A stretch of 64,000 bases of DNA, from assembly GCA_021469345.1 (NCBI GenBank), contig GCA_021469345.1_3049.1; one strand, 5' to 3'. Both the position numbers and the translations under genes were made by a program. Source of the DNA: a phage. Below the pieces are notes generated by a model. It had not been told where the DNA came from, searched no databases, and saw only the letters and a program-made list of their open reading frames with translations. Of the stretch, positions 5,012 to 59,551 are shown in pieces (position 1 is the first letter of the stretch; each line of letters opens with the position of its first letter).

Positions 5012-5036
5012 AGTCTCCTTCGGGAGACTTTTTTCA
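5012..5036 (+). terminator. intrinsic terminator (UUCG tetraloop hairpin + T tract)
   Basis: AGTCTCC-TTCG-GGAGACT then TTTTTT. Confidence 0.65.
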
Positions 5037-5044
5037 TTTTACCG

Positions 5045-5074
5045 GTTTACTTTCCGTTTGAGCTGTGATACTAT
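5045..5074 (+). promoter_or_regulatory. early promoter (GTTTAC ... TGaTACTAT)
   Basis: GTTTAC 5045-5050, TACTAT near 5069-5074. Confidence 0.5.
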
Positions 5075-8471: not shown

Positions 8472-8495
8472 ATTTCAAAAATTTTTCACAAAACT

Positions 8496-8525
8496 GTTTA
8501 CAAGCATAAAGCTTTATGGTACTAT
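8496..8525 (+). promoter_or_regulatory. early promoter (GTTTAC-N18-TGgTACTAT), member of repeated promoter family
   Basis: GTTTAC 8496-8501; TACTAT 8520-8525; conserved AAAATTTTTCACAAAACT upstream. Confidence 0.55.
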
Positions 8526-9004: not shown

Positions 9005-9040
9005 TACCCTATCAAAACAAATGTGAAATTGGAGAATAAA

Positions 9041-10807: not shown

Positions 10808-11110
10808 ATGTTATACTCAAAGGCTCGTGAAATTTACGAAACTAAAATTAAAGAAGCAGTATTTCAGTTCGCAACAACAATGCGATGGACAAATGACTGT
10901 GAGTATTCAAAAAATCATAAGAAGCCCATGGTGACAAGAAAGGCTCATATGTTAGTGTTAATAGACCGCGAGCAGATTAAAGCCCGAGAAGCCCTCCAGA
11001 ATCATAAAAAGGCTGCCTTTGAATGGTTTATGGATAACACTGCTCCTGAGACTAAGAAAGCAGTAAGCGCATGGTTCAGTGGAAAAAATTGCGAAAGAAG
11101 TTTCTTTTAG
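10808..11110 (+). CDS. hypothetical protein
   Basis: 100 aa from ATG 10808, RBS GGAGG. Confidence 0.5.
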   Translation: MLYSKAREIYETKIKEAVFQFATTMRWTNDCEYSKNHKKPMVTRKAHMLVLIDREQIKAREALQNHKKAAFEWFMDNTAPETKKAVSAWFSGKNCERSFF

Positions 11111-11112
11111 TG

Positions 11113-11142
11113 GTTTACAAGACTGTTCCTCTGTGGTACTAT
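11113..11142 (+). promoter_or_regulatory. early promoter (GTTTAC-N18-TGgTACTAT)
   Basis: GTTTAC 11113-11118; TACTAT 11137-11142; shares GGTACTATACAACTATCAAC with other copies. Confidence 0.55.
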
Positions 11143-11170
11143 ACAACTATCAACTACGGAGGAACACAAA

Positions 11171-13059: not shown

Positions 13060-14088
13060 ATGAAAACTCGTTCTCAAATTGAAGATATGGTTCGTAATGC
13101 CAGTTATACTCGTGATGTTATGACATTTTTGTGTGAAAATAATTTAGACCCTGATAAAGTTAATCGTGTTATTCATCACTTTAAGTATACGAATAGCAGT
13201 GAATGGGTGCGTAATTTTAGTAAAGCAGGGTATATTACACAAATGACTGCTCGTGAACAGCTCACCGATTTCTGTAAAACTATTGATTATAAAAATCCTT
13301 TGATTGTTCAAGGCGTTGGTCAGAGTAAGGTTGATTTATCAACAGGATTTTTTAATCCAAATCATTATCGTCTTGAATGGAGATTTATTGCTCTATTCCG
13401 TAAACAATTAAAGCAAATTTTGTCTACTGCTAGTCGATTAAAAGGTTCTGATATTAACTTAAAGAATCTGAAATTTGATGGTTATACTCTTCAGATGGAA
13501 GTAAGACCGTTAAAAGAAAATAATAGAACTGCACGAATTAGCTTTAAGCCTAATACAAAAAATTCTCTTTCAATTTGTGAATGCCTTAAATCACAGTTGA
13601 CAGAAGCATTTAAGTATATGGATGTTGTTGCTGCTGTTCAATCTAAGATTTTACCTCGTTTTGAGCGAAATTGGGAACATACAACAACGTATGAACTTGA
13701 TATGATCGTTTCATTTAAATACGATTTTTTGAGAAAGGACGAAGTCACGCAAGAGAAAAAGCAGGAAGTACAAGATAACTTAAATTTAAATTTATCTAAT
13801 TACTTATCAAACGATCCTAAATTTTGGATGTATAGTTCAGGTAATAAAGATGCATGGAAATTCAATAAAGTGAATTTTCTTCCTATTGAAAATCCGAGTC
13901 TTAAACCTGTTGAAAAATGGCACGCGGATGCGATTGAGAAGTCCCTTAAGGCAGTAGATGATGAACTCGTTAAAGCGACCAATGAAGTGCTAAAAGCTGA
14001 AAAGGTGTTAGAACAAGCTCAGTCAAGGGTTCAAAATCTGACAAAGCAACGTTCTAAACTGAACAATGCACTAAATGCACTAAACTAG
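13060..14088 (+). CDS. paralog 2 of four tandem proteins with C-terminal coiled coil
   Basis: 342 aa; FRKQLKQILSTASRLKG resembles FRSFTKQILKSASKLCYG of the next gene. Confidence 0.6.
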   Translation: MKTRSQIEDMVRNASYTRDVMTFLCENNLDPDKVNRVIHHFKYTNSSEWVRNFSKAGYITQMTAREQLTDFCKTIDYKNPLIVQGVGQSKVDLSTGFFNPNHYRLEWRFIALFRKQLKQILSTASRLKGSDINLKNLKFDGYTLQMEVRPLKENNRTARISFKPNTKNSLSICECLKSQLTEAFKYMDVVAAVQSKILPRFERNWEHTTTYELDMIVSFKYDFLRKDEVTQEKKQEVQDNLNLNLSNYLSNDPKFWMYSSGNKDAWKFNKVNFLPIENPSLKPVEKWHADAIEKSLKAVDDELVKATNEVLKAEKVLEQAQSRVQNLTKQRSKLNNALNALN

Positions 14089-14117
14089 TTTACTTTGCCA
14101 CAAGGATGTGGTATAAT
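14088..14117 (+). promoter_or_regulatory. early promoter (GTTTAC-N18-TGGTATAAT)
   Basis: GTTTAC 14088-14093, TATAAT 14112-14117; near-identical to the promoter at 59522. Confidence 0.6.
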
Positions 14118-26446: not shown

Positions 26447-27462
26447 AAATTTTAAATTTAGGTGATTGGCATTTAGGCGTTAAAGCTGATGATGAGTGGA
26501 TTCGCGGTATTCAAATTGATGGAATTAAGCAAGCGATAGAATATTCTAAGAAAAATGGAATTACGGTATGGATTCAATATGGTGATATTTTTGATGTGCG
26601 AAAAGCAATCACACATAAAACTATGGAGTTTGCCCGTGAAATAGTTCAAATGCTTGATGACGCTGGAATCACATTACATACTATTGTAGGAAATCACGAT
26701 CTCCACTACAAAAATGTAATGCATCCAAATGCTTCTACTGAGCTTTTGGCTAAATATCCTAATGTTAAAGTATATGATAAGCCTACTACAGTAGATTTTG
26801 ACGGATGTTTAATTGATTTAATTCCGTGGATGTGCGAAGAAAATACTGGTGAAATTCTTGAACATATCAAAACTTCATCTGCTTCTTTTTGTGTTGGTCA
26901 CTGGGAACTGAATGGATTTTATTTTTATAAAGGAATGAAATCTCACGGTCTTGAACCTGATTTCCTTAAGACTTATAAAGAGGTGTGGTCTGGTCACTTC
27001 CATACTATCTCTGAGGCTGCTAACGTTAGATATATTGGGACACCATGGACACTAACTGCAGGTGACGAGAATGACCCTCGCGGGTTCTGGATGTTTGATA
27101 CAGAAACAGAACGAATGGAATTTATTCCAAACAATACTACCTGGCATCGTAGAATTCATTATCCATTTAAAGGAAAAATTGACTATAAAGATTTTACAAA
27201 TCTATCAGTACGTGTTATAGTAACTGAGGTAGACAAAAATCTGACGAAGTTCGAATCTGAACTAGAAAAAGTTGTGCATTCATTACGAGTTGTGTCAAAG
27301 ATTGATAACTCTGTCGAGTCAGATGACAGTGAAGAAGTTGAAGTTCAATCGCTTCAGACGTTGATGGAAGAATACATTAATGCAATTCCAGACATCACTG
27401 ATTCTGATCGCGAAGCACTTATTCAATATGCAAATCAGTTATATGTAGAGGCAACACAATGA
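26443..27462 (+). CDS. 47: recombination endonuclease subunit gp47 (Mre11-like)
   Basis: 339 aa; phosphoesterase motifs DWH, GDIFD, GNHD. Confidence 0.95.
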   Translation: MKILNLGDWHLGVKADDEWIRGIQIDGIKQAIEYSKKNGITVWIQYGDIFDVRKAITHKTMEFAREIVQMLDDAGITLHTIVGNHDLHYKNVMHPNASTELLAKYPNVKVYDKPTTVDFDGCLIDLIPWMCEENTGEILEHIKTSSASFCVGHWELNGFYFYKGMKSHGLEPDFLKTYKEVWSGHFHTISEAANVRYIGTPWTLTAGDENDPRGFWMFDTETERMEFIPNNTTWHRRIHYPFKGKIDYKDFTNLSVRVIVTEVDKNLTKFESELEKVVHSLRVVSKIDNSVESDDSEEVEVQSLQTLMEEYINAIPDITDSDREALIQYANQLYVEATQ

Positions 27463-35728: not shown

Positions 35729-35810
35729 CATACAAGTAATATAAATCTATACTTAGGAAAAATAGATGATTCTAGGTCCTGTAAATTCATTAAAATTTTT
35801 TCACAAAACT

Positions 35811-35840
35811 GTTTACATCCCCGTTCTTCCATGGTACTAT
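35811..35840 (+). promoter_or_regulatory. early promoter (GTTTAC-N18-TGgTACTAT), master copy of repeated promoter
   Basis: GTTTAC 35811-35816; TACTAT 35835-35840; upstream AAAATTTTTTCACAAAACT. Confidence 0.6.
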
Positions 35841-35874
35841 ACAACTATCAACTGATACGGATTTGGAGAATGAA

Positions 35875-36255
35875 ATGAAAATCGCTATTTTGGTTATTGC
35901 ATTAGGTCTTACTGGTTGTGTAGCTCAAGGACCAGTAGTAAATCAGTCTGATGTAGGAAAAATTGTAAACTGTTCAAGCAAATTTTATAATCCTAATGTC
36001 AAGTGTTATAAAGAAGCTCCAAAGCAAACAGTAGAACAAATGCAGGCGAATTTTGACGAAGCTATTCGTCCAGATGAATCTGCTCAAGCATATCGTAATT
36101 CTGATGTAATTACACGCAAAGAAAAAATTGAAAACTACTGCGCCGAAATTTGGGCTAATTGGGCTAATAATTATCAATGGCGTACTGGTAAAAATGCTCC
36201 GATGGAGTATGTAGTGAATTCTTATAATTCATGCGTAAAAAATTTGACTAAGTGA
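35875..36255 (+). CDS. lipoprotein (imm.1 position)
   Basis: 126 aa from ATG 35875; signal peptide with lipobox LTGC. Confidence 0.6.
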   Translation: MKIAILVIALGLTGCVAQGPVVNQSDVGKIVNCSSKFYNPNVKCYKEAPKQTVEQMQANFDEAIRPDESAQAYRNSDVITRKEKIENYCAEIWANWANNYQWRTGKNAPMEYVVNSYNSCVKNLTK

Positions 36256-46287: not shown

Positions 46288-46311
46288 GGACTCCTTCGGG
46301 AGTCCTTTTTT
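46288..46311 (+). terminator. intrinsic terminator
   Basis: GGACTCC-TTCG-GGAGTCC then TTTTTT. Confidence 0.7.
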
Positions 46312-46320
46312 CATTTTATG

Positions 46321-46350
46321 GTTTACATATCAAAATGAGTATGGTATAAT
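46321..46350 (+). promoter_or_regulatory. early promoter (GTTTAC-N18-TGGTATAAT)
   Basis: GTTTAC 46321-46326; TATAAT 46345-46350. Confidence 0.6.
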
Positions 46351-48418: not shown

Positions 48419-48449
48419 TGTTTACTTTCCTTTCTAACGATGATATGAT
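48419..48449 (+). promoter_or_regulatory. early promoter (GTTTAC ... TATGAT)
   Basis: GTTTAC 48419-48424; -10 like element 48443-48449. Confidence 0.45.
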
Positions 48450-53392: not shown

Positions 53393-53422
53393 GTTTACTT
53401 CCTCAGTTAGTTGTGGTATTAT
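53393..53422 (+). promoter_or_regulatory. early promoter (GTTTAC-N18-TGGTATTAT)
   Basis: GTTTAC 53393-53398; TATTAT 53417-53422. Confidence 0.5.
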
Positions 53423-53449
53423 AACACCATAGCTACTGAGGATAATAAA

Positions 53450-53950
53450 ATGAAAATTTATCGTGTTGAATCATCGTTTAGTATTCTTAATTATGAAGAT
53501 GCTATAACAATACGTCGAAATCTTTGTGTTCAAATAACGCCGTACAGGAGTATAATAGATTCATGGAGCGAAGAGTGGCTATTACACGTAGGTTATGACA
53601 GACCTAATTTTATGCATCATAGCGATAATAATAAAAGAATTCCTTTACCACACGAAGATAAACTATTAGTTAAAAACGCTAATAAAGTAATTAATACTAA
53701 GTTCAAGAAAGATTATGTTGGAGTAGAATATCATATTCCAGGATGGTTTATAGGTCTTTATCATTTTGCTTTCGCTAGCGAATATGATATGATGAGATGG
53801 TTCACGCGAGAAGAGCGGGAAGAATTATCTTCTAAAGGATTTTATCTCGCTGTATACGAAGTTCCTGAAGATGAAGTTATCATTGGTGGGCACCAAGTAA
53901 TGTTCCGCAAATCGCATGCTGAATTAAAAGGCTTTATTACTTTAGATTAA
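53450..53950 (+). CDS. hypothetical protein (motB-region)
   Basis: 166 aa from ATG 53450 (RBS GAGGATAA). Confidence 0.55.
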   Translation: MKIYRVESSFSILNYEDAITIRRNLCVQITPYRSIIDSWSEEWLLHVGYDRPNFMHHSDNNKRIPLPHEDKLLVKNANKVINTKFKKDYVGVEYHIPGWFIGLYHFAFASEYDMMRWFTREEREELSSKGFYLAVYEVPEDEVIIGGHQVMFRKSHAELKGFITLD

Positions 53951-53960
53951 AGAGAAAATC

Positions 53961-54398
53961 ATGATTAAAAATAATGCTGTTTATCAATTGAAAAAATTTG
54001 ATGAAATTAAGAATTTTTCGGTACTGTCTAATACAGCTCATAATAAGTTTTGTGAACTTCTTGGTTTAACTGGCGGATATCCTTTTACTGTTATTAGTGT
54101 TAATAGCGGAATTCTTATCGATATGATGTATATTGAAATTAGAAACTATTATGGAATGGTATCACCGCTTATTATTTATGAAAAAGATTTTAGTCTATTG
54201 ACAGAAATTGAAAAACCTGAAGATCCAACTGATCTACTGTGTAAGGCAGTTTATATTCGTCGTCCATTCGCGAATCCTGTGGGTGGATGGGTGACTGATC
54301 AGTGGATTGAAGATGGTGTTGAACTTCTGAACGTAGTTCATGCTGGAGAGTACTCTGTAGTTCCTCGCAGCGCAGTGATTAATGTTCGTGTAAGCTAG
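53961..54398 (+). CDS. hypothetical protein, paralog of the following gene
   Basis: 145 aa; C-terminal DQWIEDGVELLNVVHAGEYSVVP. Confidence 0.55.
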   Translation: MIKNNAVYQLKKFDEIKNFSVLSNTAHNKFCELLGLTGGYPFTVISVNSGILIDMMYIEIRNYYGMVSPLIIYEKDFSLLTEIEKPEDPTDLLCKAVYIRRPFANPVGGWVTDQWIEDGVELLNVVHAGEYSVVPRSAVINVRVS

Positions 54399-54427
54399 TT
54401 TACAAACTCTTGGGACCAGAGTATAAT
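54398..54427 (+). promoter_or_regulatory. early promoter (GTTTAC-N18-TATAAT)
   Basis: GTTTAC 54398-54403; TATAAT 54422-54427. Confidence 0.55.
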
Positions 54428-54471
54428 GGTCCCGTGGAGTATAAAATCTTTTTAACAAGTGAGAGATAACT

Positions 54472-54969
54472 ATGATTATTAATATTGGTGAATTAGCTCG
54501 TGTATCTGATAAATCCCGTTCTAAAGCAGCAGGAAAATTGGTCGAAATTGTAAGCATTCAGCTTAAACACGGCGTTAAAGATGAAGATTCTGAAGTAAAA
54601 GTGCGTATCATTCCTAAAGATGGAAAGTCTAAACCTCAGTTTGGTTATGTTCGCGCGAAATTTCTTGAATCTGCGTTTTTGAAAGCTGTTCCCGCTAAAG
54701 GAATTGAAACGATTGATACTTCGCATGTAGGTGTAGACTTTAAGTGGAAACTCGGTCAGGCTATTAAGTTCATTGCTCCTTATGAATTCGAATTTACCGA
54801 AGATGAGGAAGGGGTTGTTCAAAAACATCGTACTCGTGCTATGTGTGCATACATTACCGATCAATGGGTAGAAGATGGCGTTAAGTTGTACAACGCGGTA
54901 TTTTTAGGAACATACAAAGTCATTCCTGAAAGTTGGATTAAACACTATAGCAAAGCTCGCTGTGCATAA
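54472..54969 (+). CDS. hypothetical protein (MotB-like position), paralog of previous gene
   Basis: 165 aa; C-terminal DQWVEDGVKLYNAVFLGTYKVIP. Confidence 0.55.
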   Translation: MIINIGELARVSDKSRSKAAGKLVEIVSIQLKHGVKDEDSEVKVRIIPKDGKSKPQFGYVRAKFLESAFLKAVPAKGIETIDTSHVGVDFKWKLGQAIKFIAPYEFEFTEDEEGVVQKHRTRAMCAYITDQWVEDGVKLYNAVFLGTYKVIPESWIKHYSKARCA

Positions 54970-54974
54970 AGTTT

Positions 54975-55095
54975 AAAATTTTTTCATAAAACTATATACA
55001 TCAGTAGTTGATTATGGTACTATATCAATATCAACTACTGATACAGAAAACAACTTGGAGAATAAAATGGAAATTCGCCAAAGGTGCTGATACTC
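54975..55095 (+). repeat. degenerate copy of the early promoter plus 5' gene segment found at 35792-35895
   Basis: Shared AAAATTTTTTCA, TATGGTACTATA, ATCAACT, TTGGAGAATaAAATGgAAATtCGC; -35 hexamer mutated; residual ORF is 7 codons. Confidence 0.5.
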
Positions 55096-55140
55096 TTCTG
55101 AAACGCATCGCTCCAATGTTTAATTAATGAGGAAATTGTA

Positions 55141-55356
55141 ATGAAACGTAAAATTGTTCAGAACTGCACTAATGATGAATTTGAAGATGTATTATTTGAT
55201 CCAAATTTGGTAGTAGTTCAAAAGGAACATACTAGCAAGTTTACTCACTTGACTTCGGTTTATGTGTATGAGAAAGTCGGTGATAAACAGCCAATTTACG
55301 GTGTATTTCGTGAAATTACTGAAGATGGCACAACTTACTGGAAGGAAATTTATTAA
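55141..55356 (+). CDS. cef: Cef-like protein (modifier of suppressor tRNAs position)
   Basis: 71 aa; size and position. Confidence 0.55.
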
Positions 55357-55775
55357 TGGCTATTAAATTTGAAGTTAATAAATGGTATCAATTTAAAAAT
55401 AAACAAGCTCAAGAAAATTTTATTAAAGACCATACTGATAACGGAATCTATGCACGACGTTTAGGTATGGAGCCTTTTAAAATTTTAGATGCTGATTATC
55501 TTGGGCGTCCTACTAAAATTATGACATCCATAGGTGTGCTCAAACGTTGTGCCGGTGGTGATATCCTTGACGAAAACTTTATCTGGCTCTCTACTAACGA
55601 AGCTGGGTTCTTTGATGAAGTTGAAAATCCATATCAGGCTGCTGAAGAACAAGAGCAGGAAGAGCAAGAACAAATAGAAGATTTCACAGAATTCCCGGTA
55701 ATGAAAGTTACTATTGAAAATAATGAACAAGCATGGTCCTTGTATCAAATGTTGAAAGCCCACTTTAAGGAATAA
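55356..55775 (+). CDS. goF: GoF/ComC-alpha-like protein
   Basis: 139 aa; acidic [10 protein letters not shown] tract; position before 39. Confidence 0.55.
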
Positions 55776-55777
55776 TT

Positions 55778-55954
55778 ATGCCTCTTTATGATTATAAATG
55801 TCAATCCAAAGACTGCGCAAAAGAATACGAAAAAATCAAGAAAATTTCTGAAATGGATACTGATGTATGTCCTGATTGTCATCGGATTGCTATTCGGTTA
55901 GTTTCCGCTCCTAAGCATGTGAATGGTGGTTTTTACGACTTACTTAAAGGGTAA
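55778..55954 (+). CDS. FmdB-type zinc-ribbon small protein
   Basis: 58 aa; MPLYDYKCQSKDC...CPDCH. Confidence 0.45.
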   Translation: MPLYDYKCQSKDCAKEYEKIKKISEMDTDVCPDCHRIAIRLVSAPKHVNGGFYDLLKG

Positions 55955-55956
55955 TT

Positions 55957-56328
55957 ATGTTTAAAATCGGTAAGAAATATCGTATTCGCGAAGGCGAAGA
56001 AAAGAAATATCTAATGTCTGCTATTTATAGGAATGGTTCTATTAATGCTGTAATATCTACAAGCGAATTTATCGTTGAAGATATGAAAGGTAATAATGTT
56101 ACAATGATTAGTACAGCATCTGGAAATGATGGAAAAATTCTTCACAGTTTTCAGAGTAATGTTCTAATTTATGATGAAGAATTTGACCTATTCGAAGAAG
56201 TTACAGAAGATTTTGATTTTGAATGCACCATCACTATGAAATCTGGCGACCCTCTTTCTTTTACAGTTAAAGATGAAAGAAGCCGTTTGAGAATTATTAG
56301 TCTTCTTCAAGCCATTAAATTTAAGTGA
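55957..56328 (+). CDS. hypothetical protein
   Basis: 123-aa ORF. Confidence 0.5.
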   Translation: MFKIGKKYRIREGEEKKYLMSAIYRNGSINAVISTSEFIVEDMKGNNVTMISTASGNDGKILHSFQSNVLIYDEEFDLFEEVTEDFDFECTITMKSGDPLSFTVKDERSRLRIISLLQAIKFK

Positions 56329-56594
56329 AAATTATGAAATATGTTAATCGTTCTATCGCGGCATTAGTATTAACAGTATCTTTAGTAGGATGTACTGATG
56401 CTGATAATGCAACCAAAGTTTTGTCTTCAAGCGGTTTTACTAATATTGAAATCACTGGATATAATTGGTTCGGTTGCTCTGAAAATGATTTCCAACATAC
56501 TGGATTTCGTGCTATTGGACCTACCGGGCAGAAAGTAGAAGGAACAGTATGTTCTGGGCTGTTCTTTAAGGATTCAACTATCCGTTTTAAATAA
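56325..56594 (+). CDS. putative lipoprotein
   Basis: 89 aa; signal peptide with lipobox LVGC. Confidence 0.5.
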   Translation: MKIMKYVNRSIAALVLTVSLVGCTDADNATKVLSSSGFTNIEITGYNWFGCSENDFQHTGFRAIGPTGQKVEGTVCSGLFFKDSTIRFK

Positions 56595-59009: not shown

Positions 59010-59522
59010 TTCTTCTAGCGTTGATATGAAAAAATATAAATTGCAGAACAATGTTCGTCGTTCTATTAAATCCTCTTCAATGAACTATGCTAATGTCGCT
59101 ATTATGACAGACGCAGATCACGATGGATAGCCTTCGGGCTATCTATAGAAATACCTCATAATTAAGAGATTATTGGATTAGGTTCTATTTATCCTTCTCT
59201 GCTCGGATTTTTTAGTAATTGGCCAGAATTGTTTGAGCAAGGACGAATTCGCTTTGTCAAAACTCCTGTAATCATCGCTCAGGTCGGTAAAAAACAAGAA
59301 TGGTTTTATACAGTCGCTGAATATGAGAGTGCCAAAGATGCTCTACCTAAACATAGCATCCGTTATATTAAAGGACTTGGCTCTTTGGAAAAATCTGAAT
59401 ATCGTGAGATGATTCAAAATCCAGTATATGATGTTGTTAAACTTCCTGAGAACTGGAAAGAGCTTTTTGAAATGCTCATGGGAGATAACGCTGACCTTCG
59501 TAAAGAATGGATGAGCCAGTAG
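58990..59522 (+). CDS. 60: DNA topoisomerase II subunit gp60, translated with a 50-nt ribosomal bypass (coding gap 59128-59177)
   Basis: MKFVKIDSSS...DADHDG, take-off GGA 59125-59127, UAG, hairpin; landing GGA 59175-59177, then LGSIYPSLLGFF... in frame to stop 59520-59522. Confidence 0.85.
59128..59177 (+). other. translational bypass (hop) element, 50-nt untranslated coding gap
   Basis: GAT GGA TAG CCTTCGGGCTATCTATAG...ATTATT GGA TTA; matching GGA codons 50 nt apart; stem-loop at the take-off site. Confidence 0.85.
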
Positions 59523-59551
59523 TTTACTTTACCACAAGGATGTGGTATAAT
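59522..59551 (+). promoter_or_regulatory. early promoter (GTTTAC-N18-TGGTATAAT)
   Basis: GTTTAC 59522-59527; TATAAT 59546-59551. Confidence 0.6.

Follow-up and report, generated by a model that had tools for sequence, protein, structure and literature searches.

What does the short interval between motB and cef contain, and is it related to the start of a gene elsewhere in the same genome? This question was raised by a stretch of phage DNA of 64,000 nucleotides (hereafter the window), which comes from a T4-like myovirus (Tequatrovirus) with its early genes on the + strand. The open reading frame (ORF) list and the matching records gave the gene order motB.2 (53411-53950), motB.1 (53961-54398), motB (54472-54969; 165 aa, annotated as motB in the matching records), cef (55141-55356; 71 aa, phrog_1354) and goF (55356-55775, the next gene after cef), all on the + strand. 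The motB-cef spacer measures 171 bp, and cef, which has its own Shine-Dalgarno (SD) sequence, GAGG, at about 55129-55132, is the first intact gene behind the promoter predicted in the spacer. The T4 reference record holds only CDS features at this place and has no annotated feature within the spacer. The original prediction regarded the region as a decayed duplicate of the promoter and 5' end of a lipoprotein gene at 35.9 kb. That gene is imm.1, which lies directly 3' of the DNA polymerase gene 43 and 5' of imm. Our analysis points to another answer: with a probability of roughly 0.8, the spacer holds one early-promoter/stem-loop cassette of the PeSL type (combining an AT-rich stretch, an early promoter of the sigma-70 type and a stem-loop with the SD and ATG of the following ORF; PMC2839356) and, after it, what is left of a small gene.

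The motB stop codon (TAA, 54967-54969) lies directly 5' of the promoter cassette and is adjoined by the AT-rich block AAAGTTTAAAATTTTTTCATAAAACT; the AT-rich stretch of a PeSL likewise begins after the stop codon of the upstream gene (PMC2839356; PMC4122927). An A/T-rich UP-type block, AAAATTTTTTCATAAAACT, was located at 54975-54993 on the + strand, about -56 to -38 from the predicted +1, with exact or near copies at 35792 and 8477. The -35 region (54994-55000, + strand), as read from the sequence, has ATATAC at 54994-54999 where the promoter family has GTTTAC. The replacement of GTTTAC that had been proposed was thus confirmed, and ATATAC is the poorer match to the consensus. In the sigma-70 register, the -35 hexamer is TATACA, which agrees with TTGACA at 4/6 positions and stands 17 bp from the -10. 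The extended -10 (55015-55023, + strand) consists of TGG at 55015-55017 followed by TACTAT at 55018-55023, and fits TAYWAT with N17 spacing (PMC4122927). The predicted transcription start on the + strand, an A at 55030 placed by spacing only, lies 7 nt after the -10. This base is also the first of a hairpin's 3' arm and maps to T4 coordinate 6594 on the minus strand.

The UP-type A/T block, the TGn and the correctly spaced -10 of a T4 early promoter, as defined previously (PMC2988021), are therefore all present in the cassette. The GTTTAC-type -35 is replaced by ATATAC, and all 17 comparison promoters, which had been picked from matches within one mismatch of GTTTAC, read GTTTAC exactly. Moreover, the hexamers upstream of cef scored 8/12 against TTGACA/TATAAT, and the promoter was not called by a generic sigma-70 scan, a miss that neither confirms nor excludes a promoter. 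These results suggested that promoter activity at this site would depend on the TGn and UP blocks. T4 early promoters are built of UP, -35, TGn and -10 elements with a consensus that extends beyond the hexamers, and the combination of TGn, -10 and UP is a sufficient promoter architecture (PMC2988021). A reading of the -35 variant as a MotA box (middle promoter) or as a late promoter was rejected by eye, as TGCTT is missing near -30 and TATAAATA is missing as well. No mapped promoter or transcription start site upstream of cef in T4 was found in the accessible literature.

The cassette was compared with its sister 5' of imm.1 (35792-35882, + strand). The latter consists of a UP block, GTTTAC at 35811-35816, TGG and TACTAT, the leader ATCAACTGATACGGA and an SD/ATG block ending in ATGAAAAT (35875-35882), and is fused directly to imm.1 in the window. 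Every block said to be shared upstream of cef and imm.1 was present at its place, namely the UP block AAAATTTTTTCA(Y)AAAACT (54975-54993 and 35792-35810), the block TATGGTACTATA with TACTAT at 55018-55023 and 35835-35840 and TGG before each, ATCAACT 3' of the -10 in both cassettes, and the SD/ATG block TTGGAGAAT(A/G)AAATG (55055-55069 and 35863-35877). A global alignment of the two cassettes gave 84 identical bases among 104 aligned, with 16 gap columns. The likeness went beyond chance. The 15-mer SD block had 5 matches at no more than 2 mismatches against 0.85 expected, and the 19-mer UP block had 4 matches at no more than 3 mismatches against 0.60 expected. To see whether it also exceeds the family consensus, 18 strong early promoters of the form GTTTAC-N17-TAnnnT, most of them with TGn, were taken from the window and compared in all 153 pairs; the imm.1/cef pair ranked 1st by gapped local score (72, with the next pair at 63 and a median of 22). 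In the ungapped comparison it ranked 2nd, with 54/90 versus 60/90 for the pair of 8520 with 35835. Between -35 and -10 no relationship is seen, the two spacers agreeing at 4/14 positions and ranking 80th among the 153 pairs.

The two cassettes are thus specifically related, as proposed, and the T4 imm.1 leader carries ATCAACTACTGATAC, as the copy upstream of cef does. Their likeness is not exclusive to the pair, since most of the shared blocks recur in the sister promoters at 8520, 8999 and 11137. The UP block is also found at 8477, the -10 to +7 block TGGTACTATACAACTATCAAC at 8520 and 11137, and the exact SD/ATG 15-mer TTGGAGAATAAAATG at 9029. Furthermore, the core of the T4 imm.1 promoter is about 42/45 identical to the 11137 cassette of the window, and the cassettes are mosaic. 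Given the extended consensus of T4 early promoters (PMC2988021), the imm.1 and cef cassettes are to be seen as close members of a repeated cassette family. Judged by these alignments, their likeness is family resemblance among recombining paralogous cassettes and not the copy of an imm.1 gene start.

The nature of the 7-codon frame was resolved by comparison with relatives. The segment at 55055-55090 (+ strand) comprises GGAG at 55057-55060, an ATG at 55067 and the frame MEIRQRC, which stops after seven codons, as originally reported, at TGA (55088-55090). GGAG and ATG at the 3' end of the cassette correspond to the SD and start codon of a PeSL. When phage genomes were searched with the spacer by BLAST, many relatives proved to carry about 210 extra bases and an annotated small gene here. 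T2 has an intact 89-aa ORF (270 nt) between motB and cef, whose whole length matches PHROG 3720. Colinearity of the window and T4 with T2 extends to ATGGAAA and resumes at AAATTCGC. In a three-way alignment of the window, T4T and T2, the interior of the T2 ORF lacked 209 bp in the window and 208 bp in T4, which has one more A. The deletion junction falls in an A-run at 55071-55073. The left flank in T2 is ATGGAAAA|CTT and the right flank is GTAAAA|TTCGC, indicating that the deletion sits in a 4-nt AAAA direct repeat (microhomology). Both endpoints are inside the ORF, some 40 nt beyond the predicted +1.

Behind the junction, a 3' remnant of the gene was recognized at 55071-55127 (+ strand). It comprises the last 18 codons, KFAKGADTLLKRIAPMFN, and the stop codon, in a frame that differs from that of the ATG at 55067, and it is colinear with the C-terminus of the T2 ORF, KFAKGAATLLKRIAPLFN. 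The window has therefore kept the ATG with two to three codons and the last 18 codons, mutually out of frame. As in a pseudogene, the 5' and 3' ends are colinear with an intact homologue and the reading frame is broken. The ATG at 55067 is the start of the deleted PHROG 3720 gene and reads out of frame into the gene's own 3' end, and the bases after it (AAATTCGCCAAAGGT...) are the last 57 bases of the T2 89-aa ORF. These findings contradicted the claim that a gene 5' end had been duplicated from imm.1. imm.1 belongs to PHROG 1754 and the 89-aa ORF to PHROG 3720, and homology to imm.1 does not follow the ATG. On the evidence of the alignment, the 7-codon ORF is the junction of an internally deleted PHROG 3720 gene and not an imm.1 start. 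The corresponding mini-ORF of T4 (T4 6557-6522) reads MENSLKVLILF.

The distribution of the gene supported this assignment. By tblastn, a full-length ORF at 90% identity or more was present in 261 of the 536 records holding the spacer, and the PHROG 3720 gene is intact in about half of the sequenced Tequatroviruses. A homologue at about 41% identity occurs in some 140 T4-like phages of Klebsiella and Raoultella, and the surviving C-terminus (KFAKGADTLLKRIAPMFN) is conserved in the Klebsiella-phage homologue. Among nine deleted genomes, the junction is the same to within 1 nt (GGA-AATT, GGAAAATT and GGATAATT), which fits one old deletion followed by drift. Three states of the motB-cef interval were found, namely an intact ORF, an internal deletion and, in PYps14T, a precise SD-to-SD excision.

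A 39-aa ORF with a TTG or ATG start (55008-55127), recorded as a hypothetical protein in ELT1, FT and fPS-2, was considered and rejected as a gene, because it starts within the -10 region, upstream of the predicted +1, without an SD, and because its frame is broken in T4-type junctions by the additional A. The 37-39-aa 'hypothetical protein' that some records list here is unlikely to be real.

A perfect 13-bp inverted repeat was found around the -10 at 55000-55042 (+ strand), with arms ATCAGTAGTTGAT (55000-55012) and ATCAACTACTGAT (55030-55042) and a 17-nt loop. The loop contains TGG and the -10 hexamer, the 5' arm is the -35/-10 spacer and the 3' arm starts at the predicted +1; the stem can form only in RNA reading through from upstream. 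The RNA fold has an energy of -20.2 kcal/mol, with a z-score of -4.8 against dinucleotide shuffles and -7.5 against mononucleotide shuffles, and the cassette thus has the stable stem-loop in or beside the promoter that belongs to a PeSL. The set of 18 early promoters includes 8 with strong hairpins that span the -10, and a ninth promoter, at 48444, has a strong hairpin that leaves the -10 unenclosed. Against background windows, ten of the 18 had a fold at the 5th percentile or lower. Moreover, hairpins spanning the -10 were present at 7/8 scorable cef promoters of divergent phages (z from -4.0 to -6.0), with different stem sequences. When seven of these promoters (L020-L028) were placed in a common register, 78.9% of cells paired, versus 31-49% with the partner slid, and four pairs of these stems change on both sides. 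A protein operator is an unlikely explanation of the inverted repeat, because the stem sequence differs by promoter and genus with pairing kept. At other promoters, the + strand has G.U pairs, a sign of the sense RNA.

The same hairpin is annotated as a rho-independent terminator in phage ASO78A. It resembles one in forming a strong stem-loop, 30 nt past the stop of the gene before it; unlike one, it has an A/T-rich stem with few G-C pairs and a 17-nt loop (with a small inner stem), and it is followed by ACAGAAAAC with no U-tract. A terminator scan found 0 terminator-like sites in 54300-55500. The terminator reading was therefore rejected, and for the same reasons an attenuator role of the hairpin stays a proposal. 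A search of 54700-55400 with Rfam covariance models gave no match at E up to 1.

The conservation of the cassette was assessed in 15 phages. Of the 73 columns that span the UP block, promoter and hairpin, only one varied, by a change of run length in an A/T run, and no substitutions were seen, including in the hairpin at 55000-55042. In the flanks (motB end, leader, remnant and cef start), 29/220 columns varied (Fisher p = 0.003 versus the promoter region). The ATATAC -35 is identical in T2, T4 and 12 other phages. The -35, the spacer and the -10 are the same in T2-type phages with an intact ORF, indicating that the -35 variant did not arise as decay of this copy after the deletion. PST and U115 have a mutated form, GAAG, of the dead ORF's SD. 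PYps14T has lost the remnant altogether, its cassette being fused SD-to-SD with the cef start. Furthermore, divergent T4-like phages, found through the cef protein, have a GTTTAC-N17-TAnnnT promoter directly 5' of cef. The invariance in 15 phages, the PYps14T fusion and the promoter at the same place in other genera together suggested that the cef-upstream promoter probably serves cef, in support of the earlier proposal that it may still drive this gene.

These results bear on the other explanations of the locus. The view that the imm.1 promoter and the first imm.1 codons were duplicated here and then decayed, leaving a scar of promoter-mediated recombination, is consistent with imm.1/cef being the best-scoring cassette pair in the window, with ATCAACTACTGATAC being common to the T4 imm.1 leader and the cef-upstream leader, and with the resemblance of ATGAAAATCGC in imm.1 to ATGGAAATTCGC upstream of cef. 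Recombination mediated by PeSL cassettes is also documented (PMC4122927; PMC2839356), with crossovers mapped between the -10 and the ATG (PMC2839356), and recombination is visible at both loci here. At cef, it is seen in the SD-to-SD fusion of PYps14T. At imm.1, Kha5h and about 300 other records have a 78-aa ORF (PHROG 4189) between an imm.1-type leader and imm.1, and the window and T4 are without this ORF and show a precise join at the repeated octamer ATGAAAAT, giving two states of the 43-imm.1 interval. Cassette-mediated exchange is thus real at both loci. A decayed duplicate is nevertheless improbable. Its ORF part is contradicted by the bases after the ATG, which continue the T2 ORF's own 3' end, so that the likeness of ATGGAAATTCGC to ATGAAAATCGC is coincidental, an accident of the junction. 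The 7-codon frame does mark a genuine scar, but the endpoints lie within the ORF at AAAA, about 40 nt past the predicted start, and not in the promoter, and it is therefore the product of an ordinary microhomology deletion and not of a promoter-mediated exchange. The -35 variant, the spacer and the hairpin are unchanged in phages with an intact ORF, the spacers of the two cassettes are unrelated, and the imm.1 cassette is no closer to the one upstream of cef than to those at 8520 and 11137. The opposite order of events, in which the window and T4 show the original state and the leader received the T2-type 89-aa ORF later, by insertion, is hardly credible. More distant genera do have the promoter directly 5' of cef with no ORF between, and the Klebsiella-phage homologue lies in a different neighbourhood, suggesting that the ORF was probably inserted at some earlier time. 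The window, however, keeps the ATG and first codons of the ORF as well as its last 18 codons, out of frame, and insertion cannot make such an empty site; the retained C-terminal residues are, moreover, conserved in the 41%-identical homologue.

It might also be supposed that the promoter is dead, that all transcription of cef and goF comes by read-through, either from the motB promoter (-10 at 54422) or from a site still further 5', and that the conserved element is the RNA hairpin, as a processing or stability signal. This supposition would agree with the sub-consensus -35, the hexamer score of 8/12 and the miss by the generic scan. Read-through is expected at a hairpin without a U-tract, and conservation of the hairpin alone could account for the invariance of 55000-55042. 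The UP block and the -35 region (54975-55000), however, lie outside the hairpin and are also invariant, and the combination of TGn, -10 and UP found here is sufficient in architecture (PMC2988021). Full GTTTAC-N17-TAnnnT promoters stand at the same position in every divergent relative, and PYps14T has deleted everything between promoter and cef and retained the promoter. We consider a dead promoter unlikely.

We favour the reading of the spacer as a PeSL-type cassette with a gene remnant. As the comparison shows, the T4/window lineage has lost about 208-209 internal bp of the PHROG 3720 gene at the AAAA microhomology. For the function of the cassette, the following course of events can be proposed. 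Immediately after infection, host sigma-70 RNA polymerase would start at about 55030, and transcription from there would continue into cef, goF and the 39.x genes, with the mini-ORF as a passive leftover within a 111-nt leader. Read-through transcripts from the motB promoter would carry both hairpin arms and fold. We speculated that the hairpin enclosing the -10 is a selected device by which the choice of start site would decide how the message folds, a tentative idea that we regard as possible and rather doubtful. Under it, read-through RNA with both arms would be attenuated, processed or translationally masked, and RNA initiated at the enclosed promoter would have the first base of the 3' arm as its 5' end and remain open. 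The design recurs at about half of the window's early promoters and, with turnover of the stem sequence, at the cef promoter of several T4-like genera. If true, the device would therefore be a general means of insulating early-gene modules in Tequatroviruses. It would be a modest extension of PeSL ideas, as the PeSL papers place the T4/PST stem-loops upstream of the promoter. The recurring -10 hairpin could help in the study of differences between read-through and promoter-proximal early transcripts.

The preferred reading explains an unannotated spacer of T4-type genomes as promoter, hairpin and gene remnant. One locus in three states offers a clean example of the gain and loss of a small accessory gene behind T-even early-promoter cassettes; beyond annotation hygiene, the importance is slight.

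Known T4 genes provide a comparison for the hairpin. The ribosome-binding sites of e, soc, 49 and I-TevI are buried in a hairpin on long transcripts and are free on transcripts starting inside the hairpin, and these cases involve late or middle promoters. The cef cassette is alike in that its promoter lies inside the hairpin and both arms would be present only in read-through RNA, and its own transcript would likewise start with the 3' arm. At cef, no ribosome-binding site is sequestered, because 14 nt separate the 3' arm (55030-55042) from the SD; the promoters at 869, 11137, 53417 and 48444 of the window have the SD within the 3' arm.

As a promoter, the cassette resembles the T4 early promoters, with their 'uber' UP/-35/TGn/-10 structure, in its UP-type A/T block and TGn (PMC2988021). 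It differs from them in having ATATAC instead of GTTTAC, which is nearly universal among them. Further early-promoter traits that it shares are the TACTAT -10, the conserved ATCAA around +1 and the GGAG SD of many early genes.

The closest likeness in overall layout is to the PeSLs. As in those of T4-like phages, the cef cassette is intergenic, starts AT-rich at a stop codon, has a predicted early promoter with N17 spacing and an SD/ATG at its 3' end, and exists in mosaic, near-identical copies in the genome. PeSLs are repeated through hyperplastic regions, where close relatives differ by small ORFs (PMC2839356; PMC4122927). The cef cassette, with family copies at 8520, 8999, 11137 and 35835, is likewise sited where close relatives gain or lose a small ORF. 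Against the T4/PST consensus TTTACW-N17-TAYWAT (PMC4122927), TACTAT fits and the spacer is 17 bp, and TATACA differs from TTTACW at one position. The PeSL stem acted as a strong attenuator in a reporter and has been interpreted as attenuating or insulating upstream transcription or as stabilising the upstream mRNA (PMC2839356; PMC4122927). In T4 and PST, the stem-loop was described upstream of the promoter (PMC4122927), in contrast to the cef cassette, where it encloses the -10. PeSL stem-loops are most often found between -35 and -10 or overlapping the -10 (PMC2839356), and the position at cef is thus among the two commonest in RB49/phi1. The scar at the cef locus, the 7-codon ORF, differs from PeSL-PeSL recombination in its origin by microhomology deletion within an ORF. 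The element upstream of cef accordingly belongs to a kind described before, in which a T4 early promoter/PeSL precedes an accessory gene, here one with an internal deletion.

In the Yersinia phage PYps14T (locus L012, 161-270, equivalent to window 55043-55145), no remnant of the internally deleted PHROG 3720 ORF is left in the motB-cef spacer, and cef is joined directly to the promoter cassette, SD-to-SD (TTGGAGAAT followed by GTAATGAAAC). This fusion is a third state of the motB-cef locus. The only type of variation found in the promoter region upstream of cef was a change in run length, as in the T4-derived genome T4_ev240, where the T-run of the UP block has grown to 13 T (L011, equivalent of window 54975-54985). 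Public records annotate the spacer inconsistently: ELT1, FT and fPS-2 carry a 37-aa "hypothetical protein" over the promoter and the remnant (115-228 in L005, L006 and L008; window 55014-55127), which is probably spurious, and ASO78A has the hairpin as a rho-independent terminator (L007 102-152; window 55001-55051).

Among the strong early promoters of the window, roughly half carry a strong hairpin, with z values from -3.4 to -7.5 relative to shuffled sequence, namely those with the -10 element at 869, 5860, 8999, 11137, 41304, 48444, 53417, 54422 and 55018. At eight of these nine promoters the -10 lies in the hairpin loop and the 3' arm starts near +1; the exception is 48444, where the SD is paired with the -10 region in the stem. 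Moreover, the Shine-Dalgarno sequence is located inside the 3' arm at 869, 11137, 53417 and 48444, so that the ribosome-binding site would be masked on read-through transcripts. Separately, the early promoters at 5015-5045 and 46291-46321 share an upstream terminator-like hairpin and UP block (CTCCTTCGGGAG.C.TTTTTTCATTTTA), and they are of the PeSL class having the stem-loop upstream of the promoter.

At the 43-imm.1 junction, a 78-aa ORF (PHROG 4189), with a signal-peptide-like N-terminus, lies between the promoter/leader and imm.1 in ~300 of ~524 Tequatrovirus records (for example, Kha5h, L004 476-712). The window and T4 owe their lack of this ORF to an exact join at the repeated octamer ATGAAAAT (window 35863-35882), which has placed imm.1 behind the leader and SD of the PHROG 4189 ORF. 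The T4 imm.1 promoter core (GTTTACAAGACTGTTCTTCCATGGTACTATACAACTATCAACTAC) is unlike the imm.1 spacer of the window and is ~42/45 identical to the window 11137 cassette in the nrdC.x region (L031 ~27000-27110, minus strand, versus window 11110-11160). This mosaicism suggests that cassettes have exchanged sequence with one another.

Two other early promoters of the window, 14088-14117 and 59522-59551, lie 45 kb apart and match at 33/34 positions from -35 to -10 (TAGTTTACTTT[G/A]CCACAAGGATGTGGTATAAT); by sequence, they are a further paralogous cassette pair. Downstream of goF, the 39.2/39.1 region (window 55778-56594) contains a 58-aa ORF (CxxC...CxxC), a 123-aa ORF and a lipoprotein-like 89-aa ORF (MKIMKYVNRSIAALVLTVSLVGC), three in all. 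Its coding content exceeds the annotated 39.2 and 39.1 of T4, marking the region as another variable spot.

A 41%-identical homologue of the ORF deleted at motB-cef occurs in Klebsiella phage 15882-3-1 (L030 800-891), in another gene neighbourhood without adjoining motB or cef. It also has a cassette of the same style in front (AAAATTTTTGCACAAAGTTGTTTAC ... TACTAT ... ATCAAAAC ... GGAGAATAAAATG), an arrangement that fits the promoter and ORF travelling together as a moving module.
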